Numbered from the stretch's first letter, positions 6,333 through 64,000 are shown. The stretch: DNA of 64,000 nt from Gordius albopunctatus (GCA_964276515.1 OZ193909.1:14942001-15006000); one strand, 5' to 3'. Program-made: numbers and translations. Notes: a model not told the origin generated them from the sequence alone.

Positions 6333-6344
6333 AAAAGAGGGAGG
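6333..6344 (+). promoter_or_regulatory. Polypurine tract of Gypsy A
   Basis: AAAAGAGGGAGG immediately before LTR start TGT (also at 10243-10254). Confidence 0.8.
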
Positions 6345-7000: not shown

Positions 7001-7029
7001 CCGGAATTATTTATTGTTTCTCGTCTGGG

Positions 7030-19331: not shown

Positions 19332-22300
19332 CTAGATGTCAACGTACCTAATTCATCCAGCTCCATTGTAACGTTTAATTTAACAAGCGCTTTGCCCCGT
19401 TTATTATTTGGTACACAACTGCCCACATCAAAAGTGTGGGTGGAAGGTGCGTTAATTAATTTTATATTGGATTCCGGCGCTTGTGTTAGTTTAATTTCAT
19501 TAAAGCATTTTAAGTTATTTTGGCCCTCTAAAAAGATATCCCATTCCCTTTTTAATGCGCGCCAGTTAGATGGTGCGTCTGTCCAATTAGTAGGGAAGGC
19601 CTGTGTGGAGGTGGTGGCTGGCGGCACGAGGTGTAATTTACCTATTTTTATTACGGCAGCTAATATCGCCCCTTTAATGGGCTGGGATTGGTTGCAAGTG
19701 ATAGGCCCTCGTGTTAGGTGGTTCGGGTTATGTGACACGTTAGAAGTACCTACCCCGGAGTTGAAGTTAAAGCGTAGTCGTAAAGTAAGCCCAGGGGGGA
19801 GTGCGATGATATGTAATATTGAGCCTCCGAGTACCAAGCAAGCGACTAAGTCGTGTGCGATGATAAACATCGGGACGCCTGCGGGCTTGACACCTTCGGG
19901 TGCTGCAGGTGTGACACCTTCGGGTGAGTGTAAGTGTTTGGGCGACCTGGGCGAATGGCAATCTAATTTGCGTAATTTAGTGACGCGCTACGCCGAAGTT
20001 TTTTCGGAAGGTTTAGGATGTTTAAAGGGGTATGAGTACGATGTGCTGCTTAAACGAGGTGCCTGTCCTAAGTTTTGCCCGAATAGGCGTATTCCGTTTA
20101 TTTGGCGGGACGAAGTTAATGCCGTGCTTCGGGACTGGGTTGATCAGGGGATAGTTTCGCCCGTTGATTATAGTGAGTGGGCGACCCCTCTGGTTCCGGT
20201 TAAGAGCGACGGTTCGCTTCGTCTGTGTGTAGATTTCCGGGTTACACTTAATCCGTGGTTGGTGGAAATTAAGTACCCAATTCCGCGGGTTGAGGAGATT
20301 TTAGCTAACCTGAGTAACGCATGTTATTTTTCAAAACTTGATTTAAGATCGGCATATTTGCAGATCAGATTAAATGCTCGATCGGCACGGTTAATGACGA
20401 TAAATACTCCTTTGGGGTTGTTTGCGTTTAATCGTTTGCCGTTTGGCTTGAGTATTTCGGCGTCTGTTTTCCAAAAGACGATGGCCTCGGTTTTCCAGGG
20501 TTTGAACGGCGTGTTCTTTTACCTGGATGATGTGCTGATTGTGGGCGCGTCAATGCAAGAGCATGATATGCGTCTAGAATCGGTACTGAACCGCGTCCAG
20601 GAGAGAGGATTACGTTTAACCAGGAAGAAGTGCATGATTGGGGTTACCGAAGTTACTTTTTTAGGGCATGTTATCGCATGTGGGAGAATTAGACCTCTGG
20701 GTAATAAGGTGGCTGCGATTAAGAATATACGGGCCCCGGTTAGTAAAAAAGAGGTTTTAGGTTTCATGGGGTCGGTTAATTATTATCGCAAGTTTATACC
20801 ACATTGTTCGGAGGTGGCGGCTCCCTTGCATAGACTGACGCAGAGTAATGTGCGTTTTGTTTGGGCCGAAAAGGAGCAGTTAGCTTTCGATAAGTTAAAG
20901 AACTTGTTAGGAAGCGATCCTGTTTTGGTGTGTTTTAATCGTGACCTGCCAATAGGTCTAGCGGTAGACGCATCGAATAGTGGTATAGGTGGCATGCTCT
21001 TTCATATTGTTATGGGCGTAGAACGGCCAATACTATTTTTCTCGCGTAAATTAACGGCGGCGGAGCTTAATTATTCAGTTATTGAGAAGGAGGCTCTTGC
21101 CGTGGTTTTTGCGTTAATAAAGTGCCGTGAGTATCTTATTGGTCGAGATTTTAAAGTTTTTACGGATCATAAACCGCTAATTCCTCTGTTCGCGAAGTGT
21201 AACAGTAGTTTGTTGCTTAGCCCTAGGTTACAGAAATGGTTGTTGTTTTTGGGGAATTTTAACGTAACCTTAGAGTATAAAAAGGGGGCAACGAATTATT
21301 TACCTGATACGTTGTCGCGCTTAGGTGAGGATAATGGTACCTTACCTGAGGAGGAATTAGAAGGTGATAAATTTTTGGTCAATATTGTAACGGAAACTTT
21401 CCCATCAGTTAACCTTAAAGAGGAGGTTAGTAAAGATGAGGAGTTGAGTCGAGTTACAAGATGCCTGATTGACGGCGAGACGCTCGAGGAGATTCCTGTG
21501 GGTTACCGTGGGGTGAGGAACGAACTCTGTTTTGAGAACGGTATCATTCTGCGGGGTGAACGCATAGTGATTCCACGAGTGTTACGTCCTCAGGTTCTGA
21601 ATTTATTGCATGCTGGACATATTGGGACGGCTAAAATGAAGGTTTTGGCACGTAGATATGTTTGGTGGCCTAAGATGGGAAAAGATATAAGCATGTATGG
21701 GCGTAAATGCGTTGCATGTAACAAGAATGCGAGTATGCCCAGGCATGATAAAAAGGCGAGGTGGCCTCAGGCACATAATGTGTGGGATCGAGTGCACCTT
21801 GATTTTTTTGATTTTGACTCTAAGCAATATCTTTTGTTGGTGGATGCGACATCGAGTTGGGTTGAATTCGAGCGGGTGTCGAAACTATCTACTAAAAGCG
21901 TAATTGTTTTTTTGGAAAAATTAATGGGCGCTTTTGGCATACCGAAGTGCGTGGTGTCAGATAATGGTACCGCGTTTACTAGTGCCGAGTTTAAAGCGTT
22001 TTGCGATAGGTGGGGCATACGTCACGTATTAACGCCTCCCTATCATCCTAGTTCTAACGGGCTGGCTGAGCGACATGTGGCGATAGTTAAACGATGGTTA
22101 AAAAACGAGAAGGTGGAGAAAGAAGGCATTTGGATGTACAGGTTGTTGCACAATGCTTCCCCTCGTTTCCCGTGTCGCGCGCCGGTTAGTAAGGTTTTTT
22201 TAAATAGGATACCGCGAATACCGATCGATGTGTTCGTAGATAGCGAGTTGACATCTCGTGTATCTGACATTGGCCGGTTTCGGGTTAATGAGGCAGTTTG

Positions 22301-22445
22301 GGCCCGGGGTTATGGCGGGTCTGAAAAATGGCTCGAAGCGGTAGTTAAATCCCGCGTGGGCTCTAAAGCTTACGACGTGGAGTTTACGGCTGCAAATAAC
22401 CATGCTATGAGGCATGAAGAGCAATTGCGGCCGCGTTTTGAATAA
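19332..22445 (+). CDS. pol: Gypsy B Pol polyprotein (PR-RT-RNase H-IN)
   Basis: FILDSGA protease; FYLDD RT; VDAS/EKEALA/TDHKPL RNase H; HHCC and D..D..E integrase (VHLDF, VSDNG, GLAER). Open from the UGA with no early in-frame ATG. Confidence 0.95.
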   Translation, partial: LDVNVPNSSSSIVTFNLTSALPRLLFGTQLPTSKVWVEGALINFILDSGACVSLISLKHFKLFWPSKKISHSLFNARQLDGASVQLVGKACVEVVAGGTRCNLPIFITAANIAPLMGWDWLQVIGPRVRWFGLCDTLEVPTPELKLKRSRKVSPGGSAMICNIEPPSTKQATKSCAMINIGTPAGLTPSGAAGVTPSGECKCLGDLGEWQSNLRNLVTRYAEVFSEGLGCLKGYEYDVLLKRGACPKFCPNRRIPFIWRDEVNAVLRDWVDQGIVSPVDYSEWATPLVPVKSDGSLRLCVDFRVTLNPWLVEIKYPIPRVEEILANLSNACYFSKLDLRSAYLQIRLNARSARLMTINTPLGLFAFNRLPFGLSISASVFQKTMASVFQGLNGVFFYLDDVLIVGASMQEHDMRLESVLNRVQERGLRLTRKKCMIGVTEVTFLGHVIACGRIRPLGNKVAAIKNIRAPVSKKEVLGFMGSVNYYRKFIPHCSEVAAPLHRLTQSNVRFVWAEKEQLAFDKLKNLLGSDPVLVCFNRDLPIGLAVDASNSGIGGMLFHIVMGVERPILFFSRKLTAAELNYSVIEKEALAVVFALIKCREYLIGRDFKVFTDHKPLIPLFAKCNSSLLLSPRLQKWLLFLGNFNVTLEYKKGATNYLPDTLSRLGEDNGTLPEEELEGDKFLVNIVTETFPSVNLKEEVSKDEELSRVTRCLIDGETLEEIPVGYRGVRNELCFENGIILRGERIVIPRVLRPQVLNLLHAGHIGTAKMKVLARRYVWWPKMGKDISMYGRKCVACNKNASMPRHDKKARWPQAHNVWDRVHLDFFDFDSKQYLLLVDATSSWVEFERVSKLSTKSVIVFLEKLMGAFGIPKCVVSDNGTAFTSAEFKAFCDRWGIRHVLTPPYHPSSNGLAERHVAIVKRWLKNEKVEKEGIWMYRLLHNASPRFPCRAPVSKVFLNRIPRIPIDVFVDSELTSRVSDIGRFRVNEAVWARGYGGSEKWLEAVVKSRVGSKAYDVEFTAANNHAMRHEEQLRPRFE

Positions 22446-22494: not shown

Positions 22495-23241
22495 ATGGAT
22501 ATAATTGCTTCGTGGTGCCGAGTACGAGTGGTGGTTCAGGCGATCGATCCACTGTACGCCCCAAGCAATTTACACGTGTCGTTTGTGGTGGGTGCAGACG
22601 GTGTGCCCCACATGGTCAACTTCCATGAACAAATCTACCCTCAGGCGAGGAGAGAGATCCGACCCGGGGGTGAAAGATTTGTGAATATGGGTCGACGTGG
22701 CGGAGTGGCTCGTAACGTCGCCCCGATAGTGAGGATCCCGATAGCGAGGATTCAAGAGAATCCGCAACGCGGCGTAGCCGCTGGGCGCCAGGTACGGAGG
22801 GGCGCGGAAGCTGCCCCACCGGCGACGAATGGCGGCAGGCGACGTCGTGTTGCACGGAGGTGGTGTCATGGGTGTCATCGTCGGCATCGTGGGCTGAGAT
22901 GTAACCCACAGATACCGCCGGAGGGTGGTAATGCCGTAGGTACGGTAGTAGAGCGTATCATTGAGGCAATGGACGCGTCGGAAATAGTGGCGGGTGCGAA
23001 CGTTGTAGGGACGGTAGCGCTGCAGGGTGACAGTACCTTGGTACGGTCGTCCGCGGTGGCGTCGCAACGGAGCGTGGTAGCGCCAGGTGAGGCAACGATT
23101 GTCTGTCAGGTGGAAACGTTGTCGTTACAGGAAGAGGAGGCTTTATTGCTTTCTCCTGTAATGGTGGCTCCACCGGATTCGGCAGTTGAGTCGAACGTAG
23201 TACGCCGGTCTGCAAATATGGACCAGCGTGGGGAACAATAG
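22495..23241 (+). CDS. Gypsy B ORF3, Arg-rich protein with CHGCHRRHRGLRC knuckle-like motif
   Basis: 248-aa ORF between pol and PPT, preceded by an intron-like T-rich tract ending AG (22493-22494). No TM segment, so not a typical env. Confidence 0.65.
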   Translation: MDIIASWCRVRVVVQAIDPLYAPSNLHVSFVVGADGVPHMVNFHEQIYPQARREIRPGGERFVNMGRRGGVARNVAPIVRIPIARIQENPQRGVAAGRQVRRGAEAAPPATNGGRRRRVARRWCHGCHRRHRGLRCNPQIPPEGGNAVGTVVERIIEAMDASEIVAGANVVGTVALQGDSTLVRSSAVASQRSVVAPGEATIVCQVETLSLQEEEALLLSPVMVAPPDSAVESNVVRRSANMDQRGEQ

Positions 23242-24122: not shown

Positions 24123-25700
24123 TTAACAAAATGATATAAGAAAAAAAATATTTACATATAAATAAAATGATAGGCATTTTACATCTTCTTTAAGTATGGG
24201 CATTGTACCCATCAGGGAATAAAAATTAGATTTAGCAATGGCCATTGATTTTCTCAGCATAAAACTATTCGATATTTTTGAAGGGGGCAATCGTTTATTA
24301 AGTTCATTAAAACAATTGAAAGCGCTCTTCCCAAACTTCCCCAAGCACGACGAAACGATAGGGATAAAAATGGAGGATCCTATTAAAACTGAATATTTTA
24401 AGGATTTACGATGCTCTGCCGATCCTAATGGGTGGTGAGTATCGTTAGGGGTTGACAGATCAATACAGGTCTGGTCCCATTTAAACAAAAGGCCTTTGTC
24501 CCATGGGACAAGTGACATACCGCCTGGACACATCCACCCTTCAAGAGAGGGATCTGAGGGTTCAAAGATGGAGGGAACTTTTGCCTGTTTGAGGGCAGCT
24601 ATGTTTTTATTTTTGATGCCTACTATACCTGCATTTGTTAAATTTACAATGTAGAGGGTGACGCGCTTTCTCATCTACAAGTGAATTAAAAAGCCGGAAG
24701 GAGTATGGTGACGTATACAGCCCAAGCGGAGGGCTATGGCCGGATTGGTCAAAAGCCAATGACCTTAGAGTGCAATGCTGCTTGGCGTTGCATGTTGAGA
24801 AAAAGTAAGCAACGGACCGCGACCCCAAACTTGCATCCAAATCTTTTTGGGCATGTTATTGTGGTTTATTAACTACTAAATACACATTTTCATTCCATAG
24901 AGATAAGGCTTGATTGATGGAAGTATTTTGAGAATGTGACGAGGTCGTTAACGGATTGTTTAAAAGATAGGGAGGATGATATAAGAGCGGCTAGGAAAAT
25001 CGCAGCTGGTATGTCTTTAGGATGGGGTTAGGCCAATTTTTTCAACGACAGTTGCTATATAGTTTTACTTTAACATTTTTGTTCTCAATATACCCGTGTC
25101 CATTTTGGTTAAAACTCACTTTACGCCATACAACTTTATGTAGCCATAATATAATCTTTTTAATTAAATTGTTTTGTTAACACTACTCACGACGGTCCCA
25201 AGTCCGTTAGCAATAAGAAGAGAAATGACCTCAGGTCGAAAACCGGCCATAAAAATTAACTCCGAAAAAATGATAGCTTTAAAAAAAACTTTACAACAGA
25301 AGGCTAAGGCTTCCTCCCTAAACGGCGCACTCCATACCCCGATCGTGCAATGTGAAAAATACACTTGAGCCGACTCACAACAAAAGTGGCTAAGGAAATT
25401 AGTGGTACACATCGCCTGTCTGCAAGAGACGAGATGGAACAGAACCAAAGCTCGGGAGTTAGGAGAAGGATGAAAATCATCCTAAAGTGGGTATCGTTCA
25501 AAGCGAATCGCTAAAGGACAAGGTGGTAGAACTAGAAGTCAAGCGTTGTTCAGATAGGCTAATAAGGGGGCCTTCTAACCGTTATGTGCGAGTTTCCTCC
25601 CCAAATTGCATATATGGAACCACAGAAAGATATATTCTTTGATTCATTCGAAAAGGATCTACAAAGTATAAGACAAAGGCAATTTTTTGTTGGCCAATTT
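24123..25700 (-). pseudogene. Degenerate CRE-clade non-LTR retrotransposon
   Basis: EPSDPSLEG..PGGMSLVPWDKG...WDQTCID...E.RK..KY matches the endonuclease region of the 43-46 kb element. Confidence 0.75.
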
Positions 25701-26848: not shown

Positions 26849-29484
26849 TAGAGGTGGGCGCGGGCCTAATTTTTTATTCACGGCCCGCCCACTCACGGTG
26901 GTATTAAAAAAAATTCACGCCCACTCACGAAAGGCAATATTTTGATTCACGCACGTCACGCCCGAAAATTCACGATGTTTTTAAATTTTTCAAAATTGGT
27001 AATGGTAACTAGAGGTGGGCGCGGGCCGTGAAATTACGCGTGACCCATCGTGTCACGGTGGGTCACGGCGTGAATGTGAAGAAATTATAAATTAGTAGGC
27101 GTGACTGGGCGTGACGGGCCTTTCCAAAATTTTTCATAAATCACGGAGGCGTGAACACAAATTTCCATAAATCACGGAGATTTTAATTTTTAAAATTGTT
27201 TTTTATTAATATAAATTTGCAGATTTATAATTTTAAAAAATATATATATTATTTATTATTTTGTGGGACATTAAATTCGGCGAGATTGTTTTCGGCAAGT
27301 TGACGGGACACCTACAACAACCAATGAAAAATAATAAATCAGTGGAAATATGGTAATACATAAATATATGTTTTATTTTCATTTATCTTTATTATTTATA
27401 GTAATCATACACAAAGCAGTGGTGAAGGAGATAATAATTAAATAATTGAGATGGGCATGATTTCAAAATCAGAGATGTTAATTAAAATAAGAAAGAAAGA
27501 CATTGATATTGAATTTAAAGCTCCAGAAAACAGAAAAAGCAAGATATGGGATAACTTCTTAACAATTTATTATAAAGGTACCTTACAAAATTTTGTAAAA
27601 TGTACAAGTTGCCAAAACGTGATGTCATATAAATGTAAAACAGGAACTGCTAGTTTATTAAGACATAAATGTGTCATAAAAAATACAACAAAACATTCTG
27701 AGTCAATATATAACTTGTTTAAAAGACAAATATCAGATAAATCAAAAGCAGTTTTACAAAAAAATCAGTTATATTTTATATGTAAAGATCTACGACCTTT
27801 AAATGCTACAGAAAGTGAAGGATTTTATAAGCTTGGCCAAGAGTTAATTAATGTTGGTGTTACATATGGACAACAAAATATAAAAGATATACTTGTTAGT
27901 AGAAAAACTCTTATGAATACAGTAACTCCAAAAATATATGAAGAAATTAAAATTAAGATAAAAAGCTTGATCAAAAACAATTACTTGTCCATTACCACCG
28001 ACTTTTGGACAGATGAGTATAAAAATCGTAGTTTTTTAACTATTACTGGGCATGTTATCAATAAGGATTTTGAATTAAAATCATTTGTTTTGGCTACAAG
28101 GGTAATGGATGAAAAAAAACAGGAGCCAATATCAAAATTATAATAAATTCAATTTTGGAAGAATACACAGACATAGAAAATTATTTAAGTAAATGTATAG
28201 TGGTAACTGATAACGGGGCAAACCTAATATGTGCATTTAGAGATGATGAAAGGCTACCCTGCATATGCCATATATTAAACAACATTATGCATTACATTTT
28301 TGATAATTGTTTACATGAAATAACTGAAAATATAAATGGTGTGAAAAAAATAGTACAGTATTTCAAGCAATCAACAGCTAACATCAAACTAGGCTATACT
28401 CTTAAACAAGATGTGACAACTAGATGGAACTCTGTATATATCATGATACAGAGTTTCTTAAAATCATATTCCGAAATTCAGGTGTACTTGCTTAGCAAGC
28501 AAGAATTAAATCGACTAGCGACTATTGATATTACCATCTTACGGCAGTTAGAATTTTTTTTATCAATATTTAAAGAATGCTCGGAAAATTTGAGTGCCGA
28601 TTCTCATCCCACAATAAATGAAGTTTATCTGTGGCGACAAAAATTATTAAAGTTTTGTCAACCCTCTGAAGGGGATACAACAATAATAGAAACCTTAAAA
28701 ATCAGAACTGGATGTCTTTTAAAAGAAAGATTCATCATGCAGCCCCTACATAACGTAGGCTTAATTTTGGATCCCAATTTCAAAAGCCTTAAGTTTTTAT
28801 CAGAAGAAGAAAAAAACGATATATATAAAACTACCATAAAAATGCTAAATGTCATAAAATATGATATGAATGAGTTGCCAACACCAACTATTAGCTGTCA
28901 AAATTCGTCCTACACTCACAAGAAACCTAATATTCTAAATGAAACATTTAGAGAATTTCTAGATGATACTGATGAACCCTCACCATCTATTGAAGAAAGC
29001 TGCGAGGATGAACTTAAAAGATTCATCGCTCAAAAGACAAATAATAATGATAGTATTTTGAAGTTTTGGAAGCATGAAAATTCGTTTCCTTTTTTGAAAA
29101 AAATAGCGAGTAAAATTTTATCGGCCCCTGCAAGTTCGGCATCTAGTGAAAGATTGTTCTCTGTAGCCAATCGCGTGTTGGAGGAAAGGCGTACTCAATT
29201 AAAATCAAAAAACATGGATATTATTCTTTTTTTAAATAAAAATTTCGATTTATAAATTGTAATTATTTTTTGTTATGGAATTATAGAAATAAATAGAATA
29301 AATTCAAAAAAGTGTATAATTATAGGTTACCATTAGAGGTGGGCGCGGGCCTAATTTTTTATTCACGGCCCGCCCACTCACGGTGGTATTAAAAAAAATT
29401 CACGCCCACTCACGAAAGGCAATATTTTGATTCACGCACGTCACGCCCGAAAATTCACGGTGTTTTTAAATTTTTCAAAATTGG
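26849..29484 (+). mobile_element. Rearranged hAT element with three co-oriented TIRs
   Basis: TAGAGGTGGGCGCGGGCC at 26849, 27010 and 29334. 26849-26999 is a direct repeat of 29334-29484. TCACG/CGTGA subterminal motifs. Confidence 0.75.
27451..29255 (+). CDS. hAT (Hermes/hobo-like) transposase; one frameshift at the A8 run ~28112-28119
   Basis: BED finger (W..F...C..C...LLRH.C), TTDFWTD, VTDNGAN, CICH, TRWNS, C-terminal FW...P.L..IA..ILSAPASSASSERLFS. Confidence 0.9.
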
Positions 29485-29850: not shown

Positions 29851-32313
29851 GGCTGGCTCTACTAATGTGAGTTCGAATCCCGGAGAAGGCAATTTTTTTT
29901 AATTAAATCGAAAATTTGTATTAATAATTAACTAATTATTTTACATTTAATACCCCCCCCCCCCCGCCTATAGGCATTCTCACCCCTTCCCACCTTTCTC
30001 GCCCATAAATTGCATAGCAAATATGATACATTTATACGGAGTGTAGATGAGTTCCCCCTTCCCTCCCCTCCTCCCCTTCCCCCTTCCCACGAGGGCCGAA
30101 GGCCCGAGTTTTTATATATATCTTATTAAAAAATCTTATCATAGGTAGGCGGGCAATCATTTTCCTGCGTAACCAATATTTTTTCGTTTTTTATATTATA
30201 CTCGAGGAGTTATGATATAACCAAACGATAATTATCATATAGAAAAATCAATGGGAACTAATTTTTTAGGTAATCTCCTTAATAATTGTTACCGTGTTCA
30301 TTTTAGGGACTAATCACTCTAAAATTGTCAATAAATCTTTCAAAAACATTTTTAAAAAATACAAATCACACATGTTATTAAATTCGAAAATGTATCAAAA
30401 GTTTAGTAAAAAAAAATTCAAACGAAAACAATTAAAGGTAAATTTATTTTAAGTGTCTACTAAAGTTTATATAGATTAAAAGAGAAAAATTTCTTATTTT
30501 AATTAAAATTACGAAGGCAGAAATGTTTTATTTTAAAAACAAATAGTATGAAAATAAAAGGTACGCAACAATAAAATAATTTTTTGTCGTTTACATCAAA
30601 CGTGTACTGTTAAAGAATATTGATTTAACATTCTAGTTTTGGAAGTATTAAATTTAATCTGTATTCCTAACATTTGTAAAAATTTTGCCAATAAAATGAT
30701 CCATTGTCGAACTTAAAAATTTCCACCTGATCAACATTGTACAAACACTTATTTTTCACGTAACAAAATATTTAAACAAAGGATTAAAATGTTTATCTGG
30801 CCACAAAAAATATTATTTTCGTATGATATTTTGCACATAAAATTTAGATATTTGGTGCCTTTATTCATCTCTTGTTGAGGTTAGGCCAACTTGATTTCAG
30901 ACATTTAAGCGTTTAGACATTAGCATATGCAAGAGGGGGCGCGGACTTTGAAATGACTTTCGGTTTGAAAATTTGGAAAAAAAAAATTCGGGTTTAAAAA
31001 AGTGACTTTGCAGTTCTCTAGATTATTATGGCTCATCTTTTAATACTTACTATTTGAATATATTAATCTCATTTATTTTGAATGATATTTATTATTGAGA
31101 TCTATTTAAATTTATTTTAACCGATTTATTTGAAAATATTCTAATTAACCTTTCTCCACCAACATATATAGCTTTCAATGCTTAGCAAAAGACACTCTTT
31201 TCTCTCCTCTCTTTTATTTTAATCTCCTCCTGTTAAGATGTGTAGTGTATGCTTCTAATCGTTTAGTGGTTAGGGAACGATTTTGACTATTTAAATTCAA
31301 TTCATTGCAAGAGATTGGAAAGCGAAATTATAAGTGATCCATTTACTGCCGCCCCCCCCCGATCGGCGAAAAAAAATTTTTAATGCAAAAACCCTTAAAA
31401 ATTAAAAAATTTTATGTTTTGCCCCTCCTTAATTGAACTTTTAAACGTTTTGTCCCCTCCCCAAAAAACCTGGCTACACCCATGATTAGCCTCATATAAG
31501 TTGTCACTATATTATATGTAGATTGCTTGTTGCAAATTTGTTTAAAGTTTCAAGTTAAATTAAAAAATCTATATTAAGTTGCTTTATATAAATTATCATA
31601 AATTATTATTTAGAGTTTGACCATTTTCCCCTCCCCCTGATAATAGGCATTGTCAAGCCTTTCCCCTTTCTCGCCCATAACTTGCATAACAAATGTGCTA
31701 TGTTACAAAGCATGGACAAATTTTGTACAAATAATACTCCAGAACTAGGCACAAGTCCCAAGGAGAAAATTTTACCTTAATATGCTATGTATATTGTTAT
31801 ATTAATATTTGTATTTTATAACACTTATAAAACAACCCCTAGAATTCTAACCAAAATTTTGAAAGCTTAGTGTCTTTGAACCCCATTAGGCACACAATGT
31901 ACTAAAAACAATTTCAAGATCATTATTCTAACTGAGTCCTGAAAATAATCAGCATATTACACAAAAAGTCTTCTATAAATGAATTATTGATTGTAAAATA
32001 GAATTAAATTTTAATCAATGTTTCTATGCCAGCCTATTAATTCAATTACATTTTAGATCTATTATCTTTTTTGTATTATGATTTGTAAATACATGTATGA
32101 AAAAGTGTAATAAAACAGATAAACGGATTTTTGAATGATAATTTAAAATCAGTTTACATTGTTAATTTTATCTCATTTTAAAACCCAGAAGGCATATTAA
32201 ATATATTACAAGCAATAAAAGATTTTTAAGTTTCTAAGGGTTAAAGGTTAATATAAAAAATTTTAAATTACATTGGCAGAGTTAACATTTATTGGCAATA
32301 AGTGTAAACATAA

Positions 32314-42665: not shown

Positions 42666-45600
42666 ACCAGCTTTAAAAGATTAATAAATATTCTATTATC
42701 CATGCCTATATAACAATTACAACCCAATAGAAGTGTCGGCTAAATCGAAAAATGCTTATTATGATTATCATAACATAAACTATATGATGCATACTTAAAA
42801 AATTCTGCATAATTCCAATTCAATGGATAGAAGAGATATTGTGTTACACTTAGAATTTTATTATCTTAATGGCATTCTTTAACATCTCATCATCACAGCA
42901 TTTTGATTTTTTTAACAGACAAGCAAATTGAAGCCCTCAAACATTCATCACTAAACCAATTATGAACATTCGTTTTAAACAAAAAATCATTCATCATTAT
43001 ATTAAACCTACAAAAAAATACAAAGAGAAAGTCATTGATCAAATCACTTTCTATTGATTTTACTTCCAAACAACAATCATATATCATGTGGAAGCATTAA
43101 TCAACTTAACTATTATCAGAAGAAACTCCATGTTTAAAAACACTTTATAATGTTTCCATATCACAAAAGGTAAGCAATGTATACCTTAAAGGTTTTAATA
43201 TGACCTTTGTTGAATCCTTTGAGCCTTTTTTTCTCCAATATCATACAATTAATAACACTTTTCCCAGATACACTTTTGTATTATTAAACTTACAAAATTC
43301 TTATAAATCAAACAGCTTTAAAATAATCCCAACTTTAATTTTAATTGTCCAACCTCATCATGGCTTTTTTATTCCACATATGTTAATCTCTAAACCCCTA
43401 TGCCCAACTTGTAAGCGACGAATATGCCTTGATAAACATAATTGTTTCTGGATTCATTGCCCAGTGTCTTCAAGATGCCCTTCTTCGGGCAAATTACCTC
43501 CACCCTGCTTACCAATTCCACCCCTGGCTTCTAACTTTGAAGAGGCTCCCCTATTGCCAATTCCTAGCCCCGTCATCCCCCCATCCTTACAATGCTCCCC
43601 ATCAATTAATCAACCGCCTGACTCATCTTGGAGCAATTCTTTTTTAACAAACCCATTTCCTAATACTATCTCCAGAATCCCAAGAGGAGCCAGACCTTCC
43701 ATCCAACAATCTCTGCTAAATATATTCACTTCCATTATCAAATACCCTTATAACTTAACCAATTGGGACAAACTTTTTAAATTCCCATATTATATCCTTT
43801 ATGTTAGGGAACCTAATGAACATAATTTATCAAGCCTCATCAAGGAATCCCTTCTGTGTTTTAATACTGATGTTCCCATTACATGCACAAGTAAAACAAA
43901 ACCCTTTCCACTGGAACCCACAATTAACCAAACAGCCAAGCACATTTCAAATAAAATCCATAATTTCAACCCAAAAAGTGCCCTTAGAGCTTTTTATGAT
44001 AACAACTCAATTGCCCCTTGTTGTCCTGACTCTTATAGGGAGCTTAATCAAAAACACCCAGCAGCATCCTCAGCCAGTAAATACCCCACATCTCCATCAT
44101 CAATAGTGCTCGAGTCTTCAGACATCCGTGAAGCCCTTAACTCCTTTCCTTTGGACTCCGCAGCCGGGCTCGACGGATGGCGCCCAGTATATCTACAAGA
44201 TTTACTCAACCTGAATAATTTAAATACTGAACCTCTTTTAAATTCTATTACTTCCTTTTGTAATATCATTGTTAACGGAAAATTTCCTCATGAAATCATC
44301 CCTATTTTATTCGGTGCAAAACTTATCGGCATCAAAAAACCGGATAATTCAGTAAAACCCATCGCCATTGGAAGTCTTTTTCGCCGTATTATATCAAAAA
44401 CCCTCTGCAAACTCATAAAACCCTCCTTATCCGCCAAGCTCCGCCCACATCAACTCGGCTTCGGAATTAAAGGCGGATGTGAGGCAGCCAGCCATGCTGG
44501 CCGGATCACACTCCAAAATATTCCCACCGAGTCCTGCTTTGTTAAATTAGATTTTGCCAATGCTTTTAACTGCATTCGAAGAGAAACCCTTATTAACACT
44601 TTTTTTAGCTGAATTCCCACAATTCGTAAATTACATTTTATTAAGCTATGGTTCTACAACCAAGCTTCGATTCGGCGAATACGTCATTGACTCGTCCGAA
44701 GGCATCCAACAAGGAGACCCATTAGGCCCTCCTTTGTTTTGTTTAGCCATTCATAATTTAGTCGAGGCTATATCATCTCAGTGTATCCTGGATTTAAATG
44801 TTTGGTATCTCGACGACGCCACCCTATGTGGCCGCCCGGAGGAGATCAGTAAAGCTATACAAATTATCAACAATTTTAAACCCACTCTGAATCTTACATT
44901 AAACTCGAAAAAATGTGAAATCTTTCAGGCCCCCAACACTATTGACTTTCCAATTTTTAAACCTATTTTAGTTTTAGAGAAGGAAAACATATCCCTTTTG
45001 GGATCACCCATTGGCGGTGAAAAATCTCTCTTAAATTTTCTTCATAAGAACCTTGAAATTTTAAAATCTAAAACGGAACTTTTAAAATGCTTGCCAGCGC
45101 ATCACTCATTTTACATAATCAAAAACTATTTTAACATCTCAAAGATTAATCATTGTTTTCGCTCATCTGGCGCATTTTTACATCCAGACGTTTTAAAGTC
45201 GTACGAAGGCTTTCTAAAAACGTTATTAGAAAAAATTTTAAATTTAAAATTTAATACTAACAATTGGATTCAAGCATCCCTCCCAACCAAATCTGGAGGA
45301 TTAGGAATTCGCCCTCCCGGCAGCATATCGCTAGCCGCTTTTATTTCCTCTTTTAAGTCGATCCAAAACTTAATTTTTAATCTCATAAAACATGATTCCG
45401 ACCCCTTGCTAACTCAAGCCTTGGAGCTTTGGAATTTGAATGCCACACCCGAGACCATCCAACCTCAAAGTACGAGACAAAAGGATTGGGATTCTGGACT
45501 AGTATCGCGCTCCGTTGATTACCTCTTATCGAGCAGCGATGATAGCCAGCATTACAACCTTAGGTCCCTCGCTTTTGACGGTTCCAGTCACGAGTGGCTT

Positions 45601-46337
45601 GAAGCCTATCCCAGCGAACTTTTGGGAATGCTGCTTGAAGACTTTGAGCTATCATATTCCATAGCTTTAAGGTTGGGGATTAGTTACAGCAGAGAATTCA
45701 ACTGTCAAAACTGCCTTACCGTTGTAGACGAATATGCTAGGCACCCTCTACACTGCCTAGCAAACAAATATAAATACGTTAGGCACACTAAAGCTAATTT
45801 ATTAATTCAAGCTGCCCATAAAAAGGCCAAAATCCCCTCAATCCTTGAGCCGTCCGATCCCTCCCTTGAAGGTAGGATGCGCCCTGACGGCTCTTCTCTA
45901 GTCCCCTGGAAAAATGGCCTATCCCTCAAATGGGATTTTACTTGTATTGACCTTTTTGCACCTTCCCATTTTAATTACGACCCTATCGCTACAGAAGAAG
46001 GGCGTAAAACTACAAAGTATTCTGCCCTTTTGGCATCCAATATTTTTATCCCTGTCGTTGCCACGTGCTCCGGTTCCTTTGGCAAACAGGCAATGGGGTT
46101 TTTTAAAGAAATCGGAAAACGCACCCCGAGATCTAAAATTTCTGCGTCCTTTTTACTCAGGCAACAACTAGGGATTCTTGTTGCACGATACAACTTTAAA
46201 TCCTTTGCCGACTCATGGCCCATTTTAGAAGAGAATGATATAGATCTTTGTATTTAACCAATATGTCTTTATTTTTGTATTTCGCTTATTAATGTAACTT
46301 TGTTTCTTGAAAATAAACTTTTTAACAACAAAAAAAA
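42666..46337 (+). mobile_element. Near-full-length CRE-clade non-LTR retrotransposon (RT + restriction-like endonuclease)
   Basis: N-terminal CPTC...H finger; VKPIAIG, HQLGFG, KLDFANAFN, GIQQGDPLGP, WYLDD; C..C...HPLHC, RH, RPDG..WDFT endonuclease; AATAAA and A-rich tail. Confidence 0.9.
43200..46257 (+). CDS. CRE polyprotein, one frameshift at the T-run ~44600-44606
   Basis: ORFs 43200-44612 and 44554-46257 join into one RT-RLE protein if one T is removed. True start uncertain (possibly ATG 43380). Confidence 0.85.
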
Positions 46338-53776: not shown

Positions 53777-53810
<34 letters not shown>

Positions 53811-54299
53811 TTAAAAAGTTTATTTTCAAGAAACAAAGTTACATTAATAAGCGAAATACAAAAATAAAGACATATTGGTTAAATACAAAGATTTATATCA
53901 TTCTCTTCTAAAATGGGCCATGAGTCGGCAAATGATTTAAAGTTGTATCGTGCAACAAGAATCCCTAGTTGTTGCCTGAGTAAAAAGGACGCAGAAATTT
54001 TAGATTTCGGGGTGCGTTTTCCGATTTCTTTAAAAAACCCCATTGCCTGTTTTCCAAAGGAACCAGAGCACGTGGCAACGACAGGGATAAAAATATTGGA
54101 TGCCAAAAGGGCGGAATACTTTGTAGTTTTACGTCCTTCTTCTGTAGCGATAGGGTCGTAATTAAAATGGGAAGGTGCAAAAAGGTCAATACAAGTAAAA
54201 TCCCATTTGAGGGATAGGCCATTTTGCCAGGGGACTAGAGAAGAGCCGTCAGGGCGCATCCTACCTTCAAGAGAGGGATCTGACGGCTCAAGGATTGAG
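53777..54299 (-). mobile_element. 5'-truncated copy of the CRE element with long poly(A) tail
   Basis: Near-identical to ~45830-46330; ~30-nt T-run at 53777-53809. Confidence 0.9.
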
Positions 54300-54879
54300 T
54301 GGATGAAAACGTAGATTGAAAATCGATAAGCAAAAGAAAGATTAACATTGTCTTATAATGACTATTTTTTATAGTGATTTCTATTTATTCACAGAATGAA
54401 TATCATTTTAGAGGACAGATTGTTGGAAATATCTGCTTGAATCCTCCCCGATTTTATAACTGAATTGCCCGCCAGGACCCGCTTAAACACTTCTAAGATT
54501 CCGCCCGGCTAGATTTAATTATTTGAGATGCACGACCCAAAATCAGGATTTTTAAATCGTTCAGCAATAATCTCGTTATATTTCAAAAAATTATAAATGT
54601 GATTTGCTTTTGTTAGATAAGAAACATGATTAGTACATCTCAAAATCAGAGAAGGGCCTATTATTAAAAAGGAATCAATTAAAAGGGTGACAAAATAATA
54701 CACAAAAACTATATAATACACTACATAAAAAATCTTTTTTAGGACTGGTTTGCTAAAATCTTGTTATGGTGCCCGCGGGCGCCTACCATAAATCTAATTT
54801 TACGGAAGTTGCCCCAACCGACTTTTTTCTCCTCTTGAGAAAATCCAGGTTATGCGCTTGGTAAAATTGTCGCCCTAAT

Positions 54880-57318: not shown

Positions 57319-58556
57319 ATGTCAGCGTTACCACTTGAACCGAGCTGCAAGAATATTATTGATCAAAAATCTTTGAAATGGATATTTGTTGGCGGTAAAG
57401 GCGGTGTTGGTAAAACAACATGTAGGTAATTTTTGTTGGCAAATGTTTAGCAATTCTTTAATAGTTGTAGCCTAGCTGTTCAGTTAGCCAAAGTTCGTGA
57501 ATCAGTGCTTATAATTTCAACGGATCCAGCTCATAACATATCGGACGCCTTCGATCAAAAGTTTTCAAAAGTCCCTACTAAAATAAATGGATTTGAAAAT
57601 TTGTTTGCCATGGTATTGACAAATAGTTTATTTTCAATCAATTAATTTTAGGAAATTGATCCTAACTTGGGAATTACAGAATTACCCGATGATTATTTCT
57701 CAGAAAACGGTAAATAATCGTTTTTTTAAATTAATATTGTGTAGATAGTTGGGCTGCAGGAAAAAATGTGGTGAAAGAGTTAATTGGTGCATTCCCAGGG
57801 ATTGATGAAGCAATGAGTTATGCAGAAGTTATGAAGTACTATATAAATACAATGCTTATTTATTTTTTAAGATTGGTTAGGGGCATGCATTTTTCTGTAG
57901 TTGTTTTTGATACTGCCCCCACTGGTCATACTCTTAGACTTTTATTCTTTCCTTCTGTTGTTGAAAAGGGGTTAGGAAAACTACTTCAATTAAAGGCTAG
58001 TTTTGGTCCTTTTATTTCTCAAGTAAGTTGATAGTTATCTTTCTTAATTAAAAAATCAGATAGCTAATCTTATGGGTGAAAGAGAACTCAATGCAGAGTT
58101 AATGTCCTCAAAATTAGAATCCACCTTAGATACAATTAAATATGTCAATCAACAATTTAAAAATCCTGTAAGCTTTATATTACATAGCGTATCATTATTT
58201 AGACACAAACAACATTTGTTTGTGTGTGTATAGCAGAGTTTCTCTCCCTATATGAAACAGAAAGATTAGTACAGGAATTAGCCAAATGCGATATTGACAC
58301 TCACAACATAATTGTGAATCAATTACTTTATCCTGATGATAATAAGCCTTGCAAATTATGTGCCTCAAGGTGTAAGCTTCAAGCTAAATATTTGGAACAA
58401 GTAATAAAATGTTTTTATATATAAGTTCTTTAGATTGATGACTTGTACGAAGATTTTCACATAACAAAACTGCCTTTAATGGATAATGAAGTTCGTGGAA
58501 GGGAAAAAATTATTGCCTTTTCACAAAATCTAATCATTCCATATAAAACAATGTAA
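57319..58556 (+). CDS. GET3: ATPase GET3/ASNA1 (TRC40), ~7 short introns
   Basis: [74 protein letters not shown]...Q.KYL; stop TAA at 58554-58556. Confidence 0.95.
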
Positions 58557-59255
58557 TGGGCACTTCAATATCTTGAACAAATTATTGTGTTAATTATGTA
58601 TTTTTAATAAATTATCTATTTTGTCATAGGATTGTTTTGATTAAAATGTATTCAAGCTTTGGCAAAGGTCTTTTACAATTTTTTAAAATTTAATGGTTTT
58701 TAATTATATATAAAAATATTTTATTTTTTCACAATTATCACTTCAATTTATAAATTTTAATTCAAAATGTTAATTTTTATAAATTAAAAAGATGTTTTAG
58801 GCCAATTCCTTTTTTTGCTTAGCTCTTTACATGGGCGTAGCCAGGTTTTGAATTGGGGGGGGGGGGCAGAGTAAAAAAAATTTCCTTACCAAAAATTTTT
58901 GGCGAGCAAAAAAAAGGTCTCCAGTATCCAAAACGAAGGAACTAACACAAACGCAAATACTAATCTCAATATTTAATTATTATAAAATTTTCAACATAAA
59001 ACTTAATTGGGGGGGGGGCGAAACACTAATTTTTTCCAATTTTTACAAAAATTACATTAAAAAAGAGAAAAATTCTCATTTAGGGGCCAAGCATGAATAC
59101 CGTAAAAGAGTTTAAGAATTCAGGTATAATTCATCACCCCTTTTTTACTCTTCATCGTTTCCCCCCTCGGTGCTTATTGAACCCTTGCCCCTCGTCGGTG
59201 TGTTAATTTATTAGTTTTTCCCCAATAATTGGTCCTTCTGTGGTTTAGATTGCTT

Positions 59256-60002
59256 ATGACAAGGAAAACTTCTTCCAAGAAGAACGTTTCTGATACTACC
59301 CCTCTTAATAAATATTTTTCCAAATCGACGTCTCTTAGTAATATAAATTCGTCTTTACTAAACGCCCCTATGACGTCCCCGGATAAATCTTCAACTGGTG
59401 CTACTATCAGCCGTGACGCAATAGGATCGGAATCAGTGGTAAAAGTGATTCTGGATCGGCTAGCGGCAATGGACGCTAAGATTGAAAGAAGTCTTCTGGG
59501 AAGGAGCGAGGAAACGATCGGGCCGGGAGATAACCCGCCACACTGGGCTCCTGCCCCTGTCACAGACACGATTACTATGACACGGGCGGAATTGGATGCG
59601 CTCTTAGCAAGGGAAAGAGCACGCCCCAGCAACCTACCAAGCTCCAATATTGAAATACTCAAACTTCGACTCAAAGGTTTACGTGAGGCTGTGGAAACCA
59701 ACTACACTATGCCGGCGTACCAAAAACACGAAACAGAATTTCTACTCAGTATGGGTAACTCGATTGAAGACTTCAACAAAACCATAGACAAATTCTCAGA
59801 TCGGGTCAGAACATTAGCAATGGCGTCATACTATGGATGGCAGGCCGTTACCGGGAAGTCAAAGGATTGGGCTGAGAAAATGGGCATGGGCCAGTACACC
59901 GAACCGGTCCAGCTTTTTCGTGCGCCTGATCCAAGACATGGTCAAAGGAAGAAAGGCTCTCAATCCAAAGGGCCGCCTCCGCCTCGGGCGGAGAGAACGT
60001 AA
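59256..60002 (+). CDS. Gag-like/unknown protein convergent with the RT gene
   Basis: ~248-aa ORF with coiled-coil segments, RVRTLAMASYYGW motif (reminiscent of DIRS-type Gag R..L..A...GW) and a basic Pro-rich tail. Confidence 0.6.
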   Translation: MTRKTSSKKNVSDTTPLNKYFSKSTSLSNINSSLLNAPMTSPDKSSTGATISRDAIGSESVVKVILDRLAAMDAKIERSLLGRSEETIGPGDNPPHWAPAPVTDTITMTRAELDALLARERARPSNLPSSNIEILKLRLKGLREAVETNYTMPAYQKHETEFLLSMGNSIEDFNKTIDKFSDRVRTLAMASYYGWQAVTGKSKDWAEKMGMGQYTEPVQLFRAPDPRHGQRKKGSQSKGPPPPRAERT

Positions 60003-60041
60003 ATATGTTAGGACGGTAGCGGCGACCCTCGGCAGCGGTGA

Positions 60042-61154
60042 TCACCCAGTGAGCATGTAGACATAGTGCGTGAGGATCCCTAAGCACTTTTGGGTAACCA
60101 GAGGGTAAGGAGCCTTCTTTTCAATTAGGAAGTGGTTAAGTATTTGCGTGGCAGCGTCGATTTTGCTTACGAATTTCGAATTTACCTCGAGGGACTGTGA
60201 TTCTAGATTGACATTTATGCCCAAATAGTCCATGATAGTGCGGGGGACCAAGCATGATTTGTTGCGGTTGATAGTTAGATTCCAACACTTTGCAAGGTAC
60301 AAGAATCTCCTAGTATCTGCTAGGACCAGTGTATCGGAGGGCCCATATATTAGGATGTCGTCCAAATACACGTTGTATTTGGATTTTGTAATGGATTTTT
60401 TGCAGAGATCGAGCATGACCTGTTGTAATACGAATGGAGAAAAACCTGCACCCATGGGTATAACTTTGTATGCATATTTACGACGTCGGTACCGGAACCC
60501 GAAGAATTTGGCCGAGTCCGGTGCCAGAGGAATGGAGAAAAAGGCTGCTTTCATGTCAATCTTCGTCATGTATTTCGCCTCAGAAAGTGATGAAGCAATG
60601 AGCGGGATTGACTTAAGTGAGAAGGGATATTTAACGAAGTTTTTGGATATTTGTGATAAATCCGCAATTAGTCGTGGTGAACCATCGCTTTTAGGAATAA
60701 AGTACATGGGGGAAGGAATGGTTCCAGGGTTCTCACGGACAATGTTTGACAGAATAATTTCGTCGACCAGCGGCTTATGTTCCCGGGGGATTGCTTTAAC
60801 GTATCTGGGGACATGATATCTGCCGTGATTGTCAACGATGGCTTTGCGAGATAATTTCGGTTCGAACCCATATTTCGCGATCCTTAGGGTAAAATTGCTT
60901 TGCAGCCTATGGGGTTTCAAGATTGTTGTGCGTAGAGATGTAAAGTTGCTATTATGCTCCAACTTGGACGGAGCATAATAGCTACCATATGTGCTTGGAC
61001 GCATAAGCTCTGTCATCAAGAGGGGTAAAATGCTTAAGAGGTTAAGTTGTAACAGCAAATACAAGCTCAAGCAGAAGGAATGAGGCGGGATCAACAACTT
61101 TAAATAAAAGTAGTTTTGTGCGAGCAATTGCTGATTAGCAAGCTGCTCATCCAT
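60042..61154 (-). CDS. Reverse transcriptase with hepadnavirus/DIRS-like motifs, no RNase H
   Basis: YFIPK...RLIADLSQIS, KIDMKAAFFSIPL, YKVIPMGAGFSPFVLQ, VYLDDILI, IN..KS, DYLG. Start at ATG 61154 or 61016. Confidence 0.88.
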   Translation of the reverse strand: MDEQLANQQLLAQNYFYLKLLIPPHSFCLSLYLLLQLNLLSILPLLMTELMRPSTYGSYYAPSKLEHNSNFTSLRTTILKPHRLQSNFTLRIAKYGFEPKLSRKAIVDNHGRYHVPRYVKAIPREHKPLVDEIILSNIVRENPGTIPSPMYFIPKSDGSPRLIADLSQISKNFVKYPFSLKSIPLIASSLSEAKYMTKIDMKAAFFSIPLAPDSAKFFGFRYRRRKYAYKVIPMGAGFSPFVLQQVMLDLCKKSITKSKYNVYLDDILIYGPSDTLVLADTRRFLYLAKCWNLTINRNKSCLVPRTIMDYLGINVNLESQSLEVNSKFVSKIDAATQILNHFLIEKKAPYPLVTQKCLGILTHYVYMLTG

Positions 61155-61218
61155 TTTGCTCAACGAATGTGTTAATTAATTATGTGACATATCGCAATTA
61201 ATCTGCTCAGCAAATGTA

Positions 61219-61428
61219 TTGGAATGGTGGAAAATGAATGAGACACGCTTTCCGACACTCAGCAAAATGGCTAGAGACTATTTAGGGCAGTCCACCACTT
61301 CAGTTCCGGGTGAACGAATGTTTTCCTTGGCAGGAAATATTTTTACAGCTAGAAGAAATCGGTTGTCCTCAAATACGATTACCCAAATTATGTGTTTAAA
61401 GTCTTGGGGAAATGTTAATTTAAAATAA
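61219..61428 (+). pseudogene. hAT transposase C-terminal dimerisation-domain fragment (repeated at 63751-63960)
   Basis: LEWWK.NE.RFP.LS.MARDYL....TSVPGERMFSLAG....RRNRL...I..IMCLKSW. Confidence 0.85.
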
Positions 61429-62108
61429 TATTGTAATTTATGTGTATTTTTGGTGACATTTAATAAAATAATAATGCTGATTTGGTGTCAATACTTTAAT
61501 TTGAACTAGAAACAGATATCAGACATCTAAATCAAATATATGTAAATAAAATAAAAATATTTTTCCCATGTTTTAAACAATAAATTTCAAAATCTTTTGC
61601 CAAAAAAATATTACATTCTAACCTGGCTTAAAAGACCATATTAAAAATGTCAAAAAATTTATTAGCATTTGGGTGAGATAGAAAATTAAAAAAATTTATA
61701 ATGCCAAAAATTTTCAATTTTAATATCATTAAGCTATTTTAGCCATATATAAAGAATATTCTATAAAGCGAAATTTCCCACTTTTTATAAAACATTGCAT
61801 TGTGACCTGGACTAAAAATATTATTAAATATAAATTTAGAAACATTAAGTCATATTTAGAATGTCAAAAAAATATTTATACAATAAAATATAATTTCGCC
61901 ATTTATAAAAAATAAATTTTTAAAAATCATTTTAGATATATATAATTATATTCGAAAAAATATTAGTTCGTACCTTTAATAAAATTTTAACATTGACACC
62001 TGTTCTTAAAAACGATAAAATATAAAGTTAAACCATATTAAAATTGTCAAACAGATTATTACTAACCCGCCACACTGGGCTCCTGCCCCTGTCACAGACA
62101 CGATTACT

Positions 62109-62534
62109 ATGACACGGGCGGAATTGGATGCGCTCTTAGCAAGGGAAAGAGCACGCCCCAGCAACCTACCAAGCTCCAATATTGAAATACTCAAACTTCG
62201 ACTCAAAGGTTTACGTGAGGCTGTGGAAACCAACTACACTATGCCGGCGTACCAAAAACACGAAGCAGAATTTCTACTCAGTATGGGTAACTCGATTGAA
62301 GACTTCAACAAAACCATAGACAAATTCTCAGATCGGGTCAGAACATTAGCAATGGCGTCATACTATGGATGGCAGGCCGTTACCGGGAAGTCAAAGGATT
62401 GGGCTGAGAAAATGGGCATGGGCCAGTACACCGAACCGGTCCAGCTTTTTCGTGCGCCTGATCCAAGACATGGTCAAAGGAAGAAAGACTCTCAATCCAA
62501 AGGGCCGCCTCCGCCTCGGGCGGAGAGAACGTAA
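62109..62534 (+). pseudogene. 5'-truncated duplicate of the Gag-like ORF
   Basis: Near-identical to the C-terminal 141 aa of 59256-60002. Confidence 0.7.
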
Positions 62535-62573
62535 ATATGTTAGGAAGGTAGCGGCGACCCTCGGCAGCGGTGA

Positions 62574-63686
62574 TCACCCAGTGAGCATGTAGACATAGTG
62601 CGTGAGGATCCCTAAGCACTTTTGGGTAACCAGAGGGTGAGGAGCCTTCTTTTCAATTAGGAAGTGGTTAAGTATTTGCGTGGCAGCGTCGATTTTGCTT
62701 ACGAATTTCGAATTTACCTCGAGGGACTGTGATTCTAGATTGACATTTATGCCCAAATAGTCCATGATAGTGCGGGGGACCAAGCATGATTTGTTGCGGT
62801 TGATAGTTAGATTCCAACACTTTGCAAGGTACAAGAATCTCCTAGTATCTGCTAGGACCAGTGTATCGGAGGGCCCATATATTAGGATGTCGTCCAAATA
62901 CACGTTGTATTTGGATTTTGTAATGGATTTTTTGCAGAGATCGAGCATGACCTGTTGTAATACGAATGGAGAAAAACCTGCACCCATGGGTATAACTTTG
63001 TATGCATATTTACGACGTCGGTACCGGAACCCGAAGAATTTGGCCGAGTCCGGTGCCAGAGGAATGGAGAAAAAGGCTGCTTTCATGTCAATCTTCGTCA
63101 TGTATTTCGCCTCAGAAAGTGATGAAGCAATGAGCGGGATTGACTTAAGTGAGAAGGGATATTTAACGAAGTTTTTGGATATTTGTGATAAATCCGCAAT
63201 TAGTCGTGGTGAACCATCGCTTTTAGGAATAAAGTACATGGGGGAAGGAATGGTTCCAGGGTTCTCACGGACAATGTTTGACAGAATAATTTCGTCGACC
63301 AGCGGCTTATGTTCCCGGGGGATTGCTTTAACGTATCTGGGGACATGATATCTGCCGTGATTGTCAACGATGGCTTTGCGAGATAATTTCGGTTCGAACC
63401 CATATTTCGCGATCCTTAGGGTAAAATTGCTTTGCAGCCTATGGGGTTTCAAGATTGTTGTGCGTAGAGATGTAAAGTTGCTATTATGCTCCAACTTGGA
63501 CGGAGCATAATAGCTACCATATGTGCTTGGACGCATAAGCTCTGTCATCAAGAGGGGTAAAATGCTTAAGAGGTTAAGTTGTAACAGCAAATACAAGCTC
63601 AAGCAGAAGGAATGAGGCGGGATCAACAACTTTAAATAAAAGTAGTTTTGTGCGAGCAATTGCTGATTAGCAAGCTGCTCATCCAT
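62574..63686 (-). CDS. Second copy of the RNase-H-less reverse transcriptase
   Basis: Same protein as 60042-61154 except Y>H near the C-terminus. Confidence 0.85.
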   Translation of the reverse strand: MDEQLANQQLLAQNYFYLKLLIPPHSFCLSLYLLLQLNLLSILPLLMTELMRPSTYGSYYAPSKLEHNSNFTSLRTTILKPHRLQSNFTLRIAKYGFEPKLSRKAIVDNHGRYHVPRYVKAIPREHKPLVDEIILSNIVRENPGTIPSPMYFIPKSDGSPRLIADLSQISKNFVKYPFSLKSIPLIASSLSEAKYMTKIDMKAAFFSIPLAPDSAKFFGFRYRRRKYAYKVIPMGAGFSPFVLQQVMLDLCKKSITKSKYNVYLDDILIYGPSDTLVLADTRRFLYLAKCWNLTINRNKSCLVPRTIMDYLGINVNLESQSLEVNSKFVSKIDAATQILNHFLIEKKAPHPLVTQKCLGILTHYVYMLTG

Positions 63687-64000
63687 TTTGCTCAACGAAT
63701 GTGTTAATTAATTATGTGACATATCGCAATTAATCTGCTCAGCAAATGTATTGGAATGGTGGAAAATGAATGAGACACGCTTTCCGACACTCAGCAAAAT
63801 GGCTAGAGACTATTTAGGGCAGTCCACCACTTCAGTTCCGGGTGAACGAATGTTTTCCTTGGCAGGAAATATTTTTACAGCTAGAAGAAATCGGTTGTCC
63901 TCAAATACGATTACCCAAATTATGTGTTTAAAGTCTTGGGGAAATGTTAATTTAAAATAATATTGTAATTTATGTGTATTTTTGGTGACATTTAATAAAA

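Follow-up and report, generated by a model that had tools for sequence, protein, structure and literature searches.

The window analysed here is a 64,000-nucleotide (nt) stretch of the genome of the horsehair worm Gordius albopunctatus (GCA_964276515.1 OZ193909.1:14942001-15006000), and this report concerns a retroelement-like locus near its right-hand end at which two open reading frames (ORFs) converge. One of them, ORF1, lies on the + strand and extends for 257 codons from stop to stop in a frame scan, and the other runs on the - strand from 61175 to 60042 (377 codons) and encodes a reverse transcriptase (RT). The two frames are arranged tail to tail, with their stops 39 nt apart (Table 1). 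An open frame of at least 210 codons appeared in none of 1000 shuffles of 59150-60050, and the locus has a GC (guanine plus cytosine) content of 44-45% in a window whose 1-kb bins span 22-52%.

A sequence-only reading of this DNA had described the locus as two intact convergent ORFs bounded at 59199 and 61182. The frames and their spacing were recovered as described; intactness was not confirmed, because the RT stop coincides with the place at which other copies diverge and because relatives show nothing alignable to the first 80 residues of the - frame, most of which fall in a very deep bin beside a remnant of a hAT transposase. Nor are the proposed boundaries the ends of an element, since the 57 letters leading up to 59202 recur in another copy. 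The reported absence of RNase H (ribonuclease H), integrase and recombinase holds for the four frames of the locus scanned with Pfam, and for the + frame and the two antisense frames examined Pfam returned nothing significant at all. Protease, DDE integrase and long terminal repeats (LTRs) are likewise absent from the locus, and Pfam detected neither protease nor integrase in proteins of the related worm genus Gordionus. Searching 58700-62200 for terminal repeats, either inverted or of the split direct kind (A1-B1-A2-B2), returned only AT-rich chance repeats, although a fragment need not retain its termini. Rfam gave 0 matches at an expectation value (E) of 1 on 58700-62100, and a scan for bacterial promoters, whose models are irrelevant to this host, stayed at chance level.

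Table 1. Features at and around the locus, in window coordinates.
Feature	Position	Strand	Remarks
Shared upstream stretch	59145..59202	+	common to another copy; repeat starts left of the start claimed earlier; joint of 59202 to 59464 in one X1 contig
ORF1	59229..60002	+	ATGs at 59256, 59370 and 59469; coding; predicted helical; putative gag-like role, from position only
Open +1 frame, 80 codons	59818..60057	+	overlaps the end of ORF1 and reads through its stop; may be where a co-oriented second ORF begins
Breakpoint	60040..60047		contains the RT stop codon (60042-60044); other copies continue with different letters
RT fragment (fingers, palm, thumb)	60042..60935	-	RVT_1 at 60210-60698; YLDD at 60357-60368; cut before RNase H
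In-frame extension, 80 codons	60936..61175	-	no similarity to relatives; likely partly read-through of flanking repeat DNA
Hairpin, near-perfect, arms of about 16 bp	60945..60985		at the edge of RT homology
hAT transposase C-terminal remnant	61183..61425	+	PF05699, E 1e-20 at 61210-61407
Second copy of 59531-61468	62063..64000	+	begins within ORF1; spans the junction, the RT and the hAT remnant; reaches the window end

Other copies and the breakpoint at the RT stop

Within the window the locus is duplicated. The second copy, which the sequence-only reading overlooked, is 99.8% identical to the first over 1938 nt (4 differences, at a spacing of 2532 nt), and the duplicated block carries the hAT flank along with the ORF1/RT junction. 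At 60107 every covering contig of the sequencing runs X1 and X2 has the letter of the second copy and none that of the first, so the letter of the first copy is either a change private to it or an error of the assembly.

Beyond the window, other copies are visible only as short contigs of X1 and X2, two runs of one study, either of which may be the source of the assembly. These contigs carry diverged copies of ORF1 and of the RT, several of them 8-20% different. Among the variant places listed (40 of 433 and 40 of 150, minus 6 in the hAT flank and 2 between the ORFs), third codon positions hold 24 of 32 in ORF1 (p 2e-6) and 27 of 35 in the RT (p 1e-7). All 22 changes in 59800-59910 are synonymous in the ORF1 frame, as are 9 of the 12 changes in 60048-60320 in the RT frame. 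Both ORFs are shown to be coding genes of multi-copy families. One X1 contig has 35 other letters in place of 261 nt (59202-59464); ORF1 in that copy would therefore start at the ATG at 59469, and the N-terminal 80 codons vary between copies. Just left of ORF1, at 58830-59070, lies a very abundant small element with G runs (depth 457,279 in X1), with related ends at 15358-15436 and 31454-31484.

For the junction itself, the contigs of X1 and X2 were compared with 59780-60320; a third run (X3), consisting of short pieces only, was excluded from this depth analysis. Summed contig depth, which is not copy number, amounts to 199,580 (X1) and 26,447 (X2) over 60008-60026 and to 124,835 and 18,975 over 60027-60045. 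Over 60103-60121 it is 2,272 and 176, a 55- and a 108-fold fall from the preceding figures. Depth in single-copy flank is 558 (X1) and 131 (X2); in X1 the bin 60972-61188 reaches 120,800, whereas the RT core in the first copy has 893-3,658. Four X1 contigs have loose ends behind 60040, and behind 60047 nine in X1 and six in X2 do so (agreement 0.89-0.92); other copies therefore go on from here with letters unlike those of the window. The junction as it stands in the window is real DNA, because one contig crosses it in each of X1 and X2 among the 8 pieces listed for each, but it is low in copy (depth 1,617 and 176). Both spanning contigs match the second copy exactly. The RT is thus cut at a breakpoint and is not a minimal RT.

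The variants around the breakpoint also bear on how the parent element was arranged. Past 59910 constraint leaves the ORF1 frame, in which just 1 of the 6 changes inside ORF1 is synonymous. For the 9 changes in 59911-60047 (7 from contigs and 2 from the second copy), the +1 frame makes 4 synonymous and none nonsense, whereas the antisense frame of the RT makes 3 synonymous, one a stop and two radical; the stop is carried by 15 contigs, about half of X1 depth. The pattern favours a second ORF, lying on the strand of ORF1 and overlapping its end, weakly so because there are 9 changes only and because the two frames share third positions. No Pfam match was obtained for the +1 frame (59818-60057), and a likeness between it and the N-terminus of Gordionus pol was rejected (best p 0.07 of 12 frames). 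In metagenomic loci of the RT trees described below, matches to RT and to a recombinase family lie on one strand in 5 of the 5 loci that have both (L019, L020, L022, L024 and L025).

These same changes weigh on an unlikely alternative, that the parent was itself convergent, with ORF1 and an RT-RNase H on opposite strands, and that an internal deletion removed the RNase H and the middle. One deletion would then account for the orientation, the sequence of other copies past 60047 is known for at most 30 bases, and the variants after 59911 fall on the third-position phase of the RT antisense frame too. There is also a precedent in the DIRS order, where Kangaroo has an inverted recombinase and opposite-strand ORFs occur (PMC4157794, PMC3266345). 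Against a convergent parent stand the poorer fit of the antisense frame, with its stop and radical changes, the antisense text past the RT stop, which is unlike Gordionus RNase H or tail, and the presence of the hAT remnant, not an element end, upstream of the RT.

Relatives of ORF1 and of the RT

Residues 160-322 of the - frame match RVT_1 (E 3.8e-22), and the motifs quoted earlier from the RT (RLIADLSQIS, DMKAAFFSIPL and VTQKCLGIL) are all present in the translations. The closest relative of the RT is the Gordionus protein XP_065315139.1 (P0003), 46% identical and the best of 6 matches among 3038 candidates. Position 230 of the 460 residues of P0003 aligns with the last RT residue of the window and 230 more residues follow; because P0003 runs on past this point into RNase H, the RT at the locus is truncated. 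Of the further Gordionus proteins, P0021 and P0024 cover the RT and P0022 and P0025 cover what lies beyond, and the latter two keep the four acidic RNase H columns common to two hepadnavirus and two DIRS rows. Against a profile of DIRS RNase H the Gordionus part after the RT reaches 18.5 bits, without an RNase H call by Pfam. The accessions of the Gordionus gene models for RT and for RNase H are consecutive and belong to a single contig, in a genome of 26.9% GC and 63.8% repeats (10.1101/2023.06.26.546503). The polymerase of the parent family is therefore likely to have carried RNase H. When the Gordionus RNase H proteins were used as queries they found no match in the window, and the same comparison gave no sign of an in-place inversion that left RNase H on the + strand beyond 60985.

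At the other end, RT homology begins at window residue 81 (position 60935), and the 80 residues before it match nothing, the Gordionus relatives included; the N-terminus of the RT model has a predicted local distance difference test score (pLDDT) below 50. The hairpin at this edge has a folding energy of -24 kcal/mol (z -4.96; 0 of 200 shuffles equally stable). It is one of five stretches folded and was chosen since the repeat had already been seen; it may represent a scar or serve as a cis signal.

The sequence-only reading took the locus for a minimal ambisense element, still intact, in which ORF1 and an RT lacking RNase H would move together as a 2-kb unit. Both frames are indeed open and coding, the junction is present in two runs, and close to the start of the RT there is a stable hairpin. 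That proposal now appears extremely improbable: the RT stop falls on the breakpoint, the RT family has RNase H, termini are missing, and the sole second copy is a segmental duplicate that includes flank, with no diverged copy of the ORF1/RT junction among the pieces listed.

To place the RT, trees were built from 80 metagenomic and 5 viral-collection loci found by RT profile, together with hepadnavirus records. Groups were labelled by Pfam for 44 ORFs and otherwise by clustering, some DIRS and Gypsy labels being set after the first tree. In maximum likelihood analyses the window and Gordionus RTs form a clade of their own (98/99 and 100/99), which in all trees falls outside DIRS1 and Gypsy and next to hepadnaviruses. 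Support for the sister relationship with hepadnaviruses is 90/77 with 49 rows and 93/87 with 26 of these rows; it is 97/94 when RT and RNase H are joined for 24 rows, a tree in which P0003 alone supplies the RNase H of the lineage. Approximately unbiased (AU) tests rejected neither a joint clade with DIRS (p 0.317 and 0.063) nor one with Gypsy (p 0.094 and 0.076). The placement applies to trees with a long hepadnavirus stem, in which PAT, Ngaro, VIPER, HEART (retroelements reportedly going back to Gong and Han 2018), retroviruses and caulimoviruses have no rows and nackednaviruses and proto-nackednaviruses are not knowingly sampled.

Profile scores point elsewhere, with the window RT reaching 115 bits on DIRS (10 rows), 107 on Gypsy (12 rows) and 39 on hepadnavirus (13 rows), where DIRS members themselves have a median of 38. 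P0003 scores 55 bits on the hepadnavirus profile, against 46 for the best of the 10 DIRS rows. The 5 best-scoring of 102 loci for the RT are all in the DIRS clade, and close RT relatives number 0 of 324 metagenome and 0 of 202 viral-contig stretches. In an Atlas search the leading entries were unnamed eukaryotic clusters of RVT_1, and hepadnavirus polymerases appeared at rank 21 of 30. For the RT model (pLDDT 58; from an alignment with DIRS and Gypsy rows), Foldseek placed retro- and caulimoviruses first and the first hepadnavirus 13th, in a structure library without DIRS, which is accordingly unranked. The earlier description of the RT as hepadna/DIRS-like thus stands in so far as this is an unusual RT near both groups that the trees put beside hepadnaviruses; as a hepadnavirus affinity it is qualified by the alternatives that the AU tests did not reject and by profiles that favour DIRS. 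On these alignments the RT branches deeply, outside both DIRS1 and Gypsy, and is apparently an undescribed lineage, one that leans towards hepadnaviruses; the lean is real in these data and unproven. In the published record, VIPER RNase H was earlier grouped with hepadnaviruses (PMC6681497), and DIRS monophyly is described as not settled (PMC12440569). As a separate observation, a DIRS-clade RT ORF lies at L100:2874-7040, within a 30.6-kb record of the viral collection.

The lean raises the question of whether the locus could consist of fragments of an endogenised, non-enveloped hepadna-like virus, with a core-like ORF1 and a P-like RT. Such an origin would suit the position of the RT in the trees, the score of P0003 on the hepadnavirus profile and, at low confidence, the predicted helices of ORF1. 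It is very unlikely, however. Neither the terminal-protein family (PF00242) nor the viral C-terminal Pfam families were found in the window or in the Gordionus proteins, although control hepadnavirus ORFs do match (PF00242 in L008 and L009). Moreover, the window RT scores far higher on DIRS and Gypsy than on hepadnavirus profiles, its pre-fingers motif and YLDD are of the DIRS kind, the first hepadnavirus comes late in the Foldseek ranking, and many diverged, coding-constrained genomic copies suit a transposon.

No relative of ORF1 was detected. It has 0 matches among 1.84 billion representatives and none in the Atlas, no significant match in Pfam or PHROG, none in the ORFs of the 102 loci and none to 7 DIRS gag rows. 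The earlier label of DIRS-Gag-like, given for the pattern R..L..A..YGW, was not borne out: no homologue was found and the pattern occurs in no + frame of 13 DIRS-side loci. A single-sequence model of ORF1 (pLDDT 39.5; 0 Foldseek matches at E 0.001) is unreliable and carries no weight either way. From its size, predicted helices, basic tail and place before a possible overlapping ORF, I infer a putative gag role.

Origin of the locus and its neighbours

The locus is probably a non-autonomous, rearranged and duplicated relic of a multi-copy retroelement family. It is not autonomous by any known route because it is without RNase H, an integration enzyme and ends. The parent would have carried ORF1 and, after it and overlapping it on the same strand, pol (RT-RNase H), the layout of tyrosine-recombinase retrotransposons, and would multiply by way of RNA. 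The best guess for its integration would be a tyrosine recombinase like those of the DIRS order (PMC3266345, PMC7192593), none having been seen. An inversion with a deletion, or one fragment landing in another, would have turned the RT piece round and created its stop, and a later duplication would have copied the scar and its hAT neighbour as ordinary DNA and not by retrotransposition.

Several observations weigh against this account. None of the loose ends listed (12 of 111) belongs to a copy of the RT at the junction, and the one divergent contig listed for the RT stops at 60054 without a loose end. X1 and X2 come from a single study. Co-orientation in the parent is deduced from 9 variants only, and no full-length copy exists among the contigs. 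ORF1 is free of stops and frameshifts over 257 codons and the RT over about 300, so either the break is recent or the piece has been kept. Very high depth is confined to 59800-60047, most of ORF1 having only about two to three times RT depth; the diverging copies could therefore be short derivatives, silent on full elements. Finally, I infer a common family for ORF1 and RT, and ORF1 has no homologue in Gordionus.

In itself the locus, a scrambled relic, is nothing unusual, and its possible importance lies in its family. A multi-copy, constrained RT-RNase H lineage with intact catalytic motifs would offer complete elements in which to seek a recombinase, a terminal-protein precursor and a core-like ORF1. 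A new hepadna-leaning lineage with ordinary gene order is conceivable, if doubtful. It is highly unlikely that the parent was an undescribed, recently multiplying horsehair-worm retroelement, sister of the hepadnavirus-like viruses, with ORF1 facing RT-RNase H and the window copy a deletion derivative. An undescribed sister of those viruses would, if true, provide a second bridge besides HEART. In one preprint, DIRS elements are reported in Mermis only among the nematomorph and nematode genomes covered (10.1101/2024.06.11.598342), and because of that listing the RT family seems to have been missed by routine annotation. No published description of the RT lineage, or of a nematomorph hepadna-like or ambisense retroelement, was found in a search whose coverage excluded most subscription journals and Repbase.

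The remainder of the window is rich in transposons. A Gypsy pol at 19332-22445 (+) looks intact, its 1037 codons encoding protease, RT, RNase H and integrase, and is followed at 22495-23241 by a GC-rich 248-codon ORF without a Pfam match. A hAT transposase occupies two overlapping frames at 27442-29255 (+; PF10683, weak, and PF05699). A non-LTR retrotransposon at 43110-46257 (+) likewise has two overlapping frames, with a split RVT_1 and fragments at 53799-54304 and 24123-24674; its endonuclease end may be CRE/R2-like. A 5.5-kb inverted repeat (97.8%) at 4251-9773, with a 1.1-kb further copy of its inner part at 9774-10913, could be a fold-back or an assembly effect. The host gene at 57500-58540 (+) belongs to the ArsA/GET3 ATPase family (PF02374), has apparent introns of about 40-50 nt and is single-copy in X1 and X2.

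Comparison with known systems

How, then, does this locus compare with described retroelements and viruses? From Gypsy elements (Metaviridae) it differs by the lack of protease, DDE integrase and LTRs and by an RT outside the Gypsy clade in the trees, with a joint clade not rejected. The Blubervirales are the nearest group in the trees and share a PMG.G.SP motif, a similar post-fingers motif and a similar RNase H end motif. PMG is not diagnostic of them, however, because an Ngaro row has it too (PMC12691608). The window family differs from the Blubervirales in having no terminal protein, YLDD instead of YMDD, no core homologue by sequence and the character of a multi-copy genomic repeat. In the alignment of the same source, hepadnavirus and proto-nackednavirus rows have YMDD or near variants and another pre-fingers motif, whereas the pre-fingers motif and YLDD of the window are of the DIRS kind (PMC12691608).

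HEART elements resemble the locus as invertebrate genomic retroelements with an RT near the Blubervirales and an unresolved mobilisation (PMC12691608, PMC11551314, PMC12440569). They differ by a DN catalytic motif and LPFG in 7 of 7 rows of data set S6, against DD and PMG in the window, a separation that comes from my own reading of the alignment and not from a stated definition (PMC12691608).

The DIRS order (including Kangaroo, Ngaro and VIPER/TATE) gives the best profile scores for RT and RNase H and shares YLDD, the lack of protease and integrase, and an ORF1 with a possibly overlapping second frame. The differences are that the frames scanned at the window locus hold no recombinase, that it has neither a methyltransferase nor inverted or split repeats, and that its RT falls outside the DIRS1 clade in the trees, with a joint clade not rejected. 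Dam methyltransferase was also absent from P0003, P0022 and P0025, whereas P0005 and L022 do match. DIRS1 pol has RT and RNase H, where the window locus has RT only and the Gordionus relatives have RNase H. Likewise, DIRS1 gag lies upstream on the same strand, whereas ORF1 of the window is on the opposite strand and is unlike the 7 DIRS gag rows; the overlapping +1 frame hints at a second ORF co-oriented with ORF1. Closest of all are the Gordionus RT-RNase H proteins (XP_065315139.1, CAK9296137-9.1 and CAK9300581.1), which are 44-46% identical over the window RT and differ from it in continuing into RNase H and an acidic tail.

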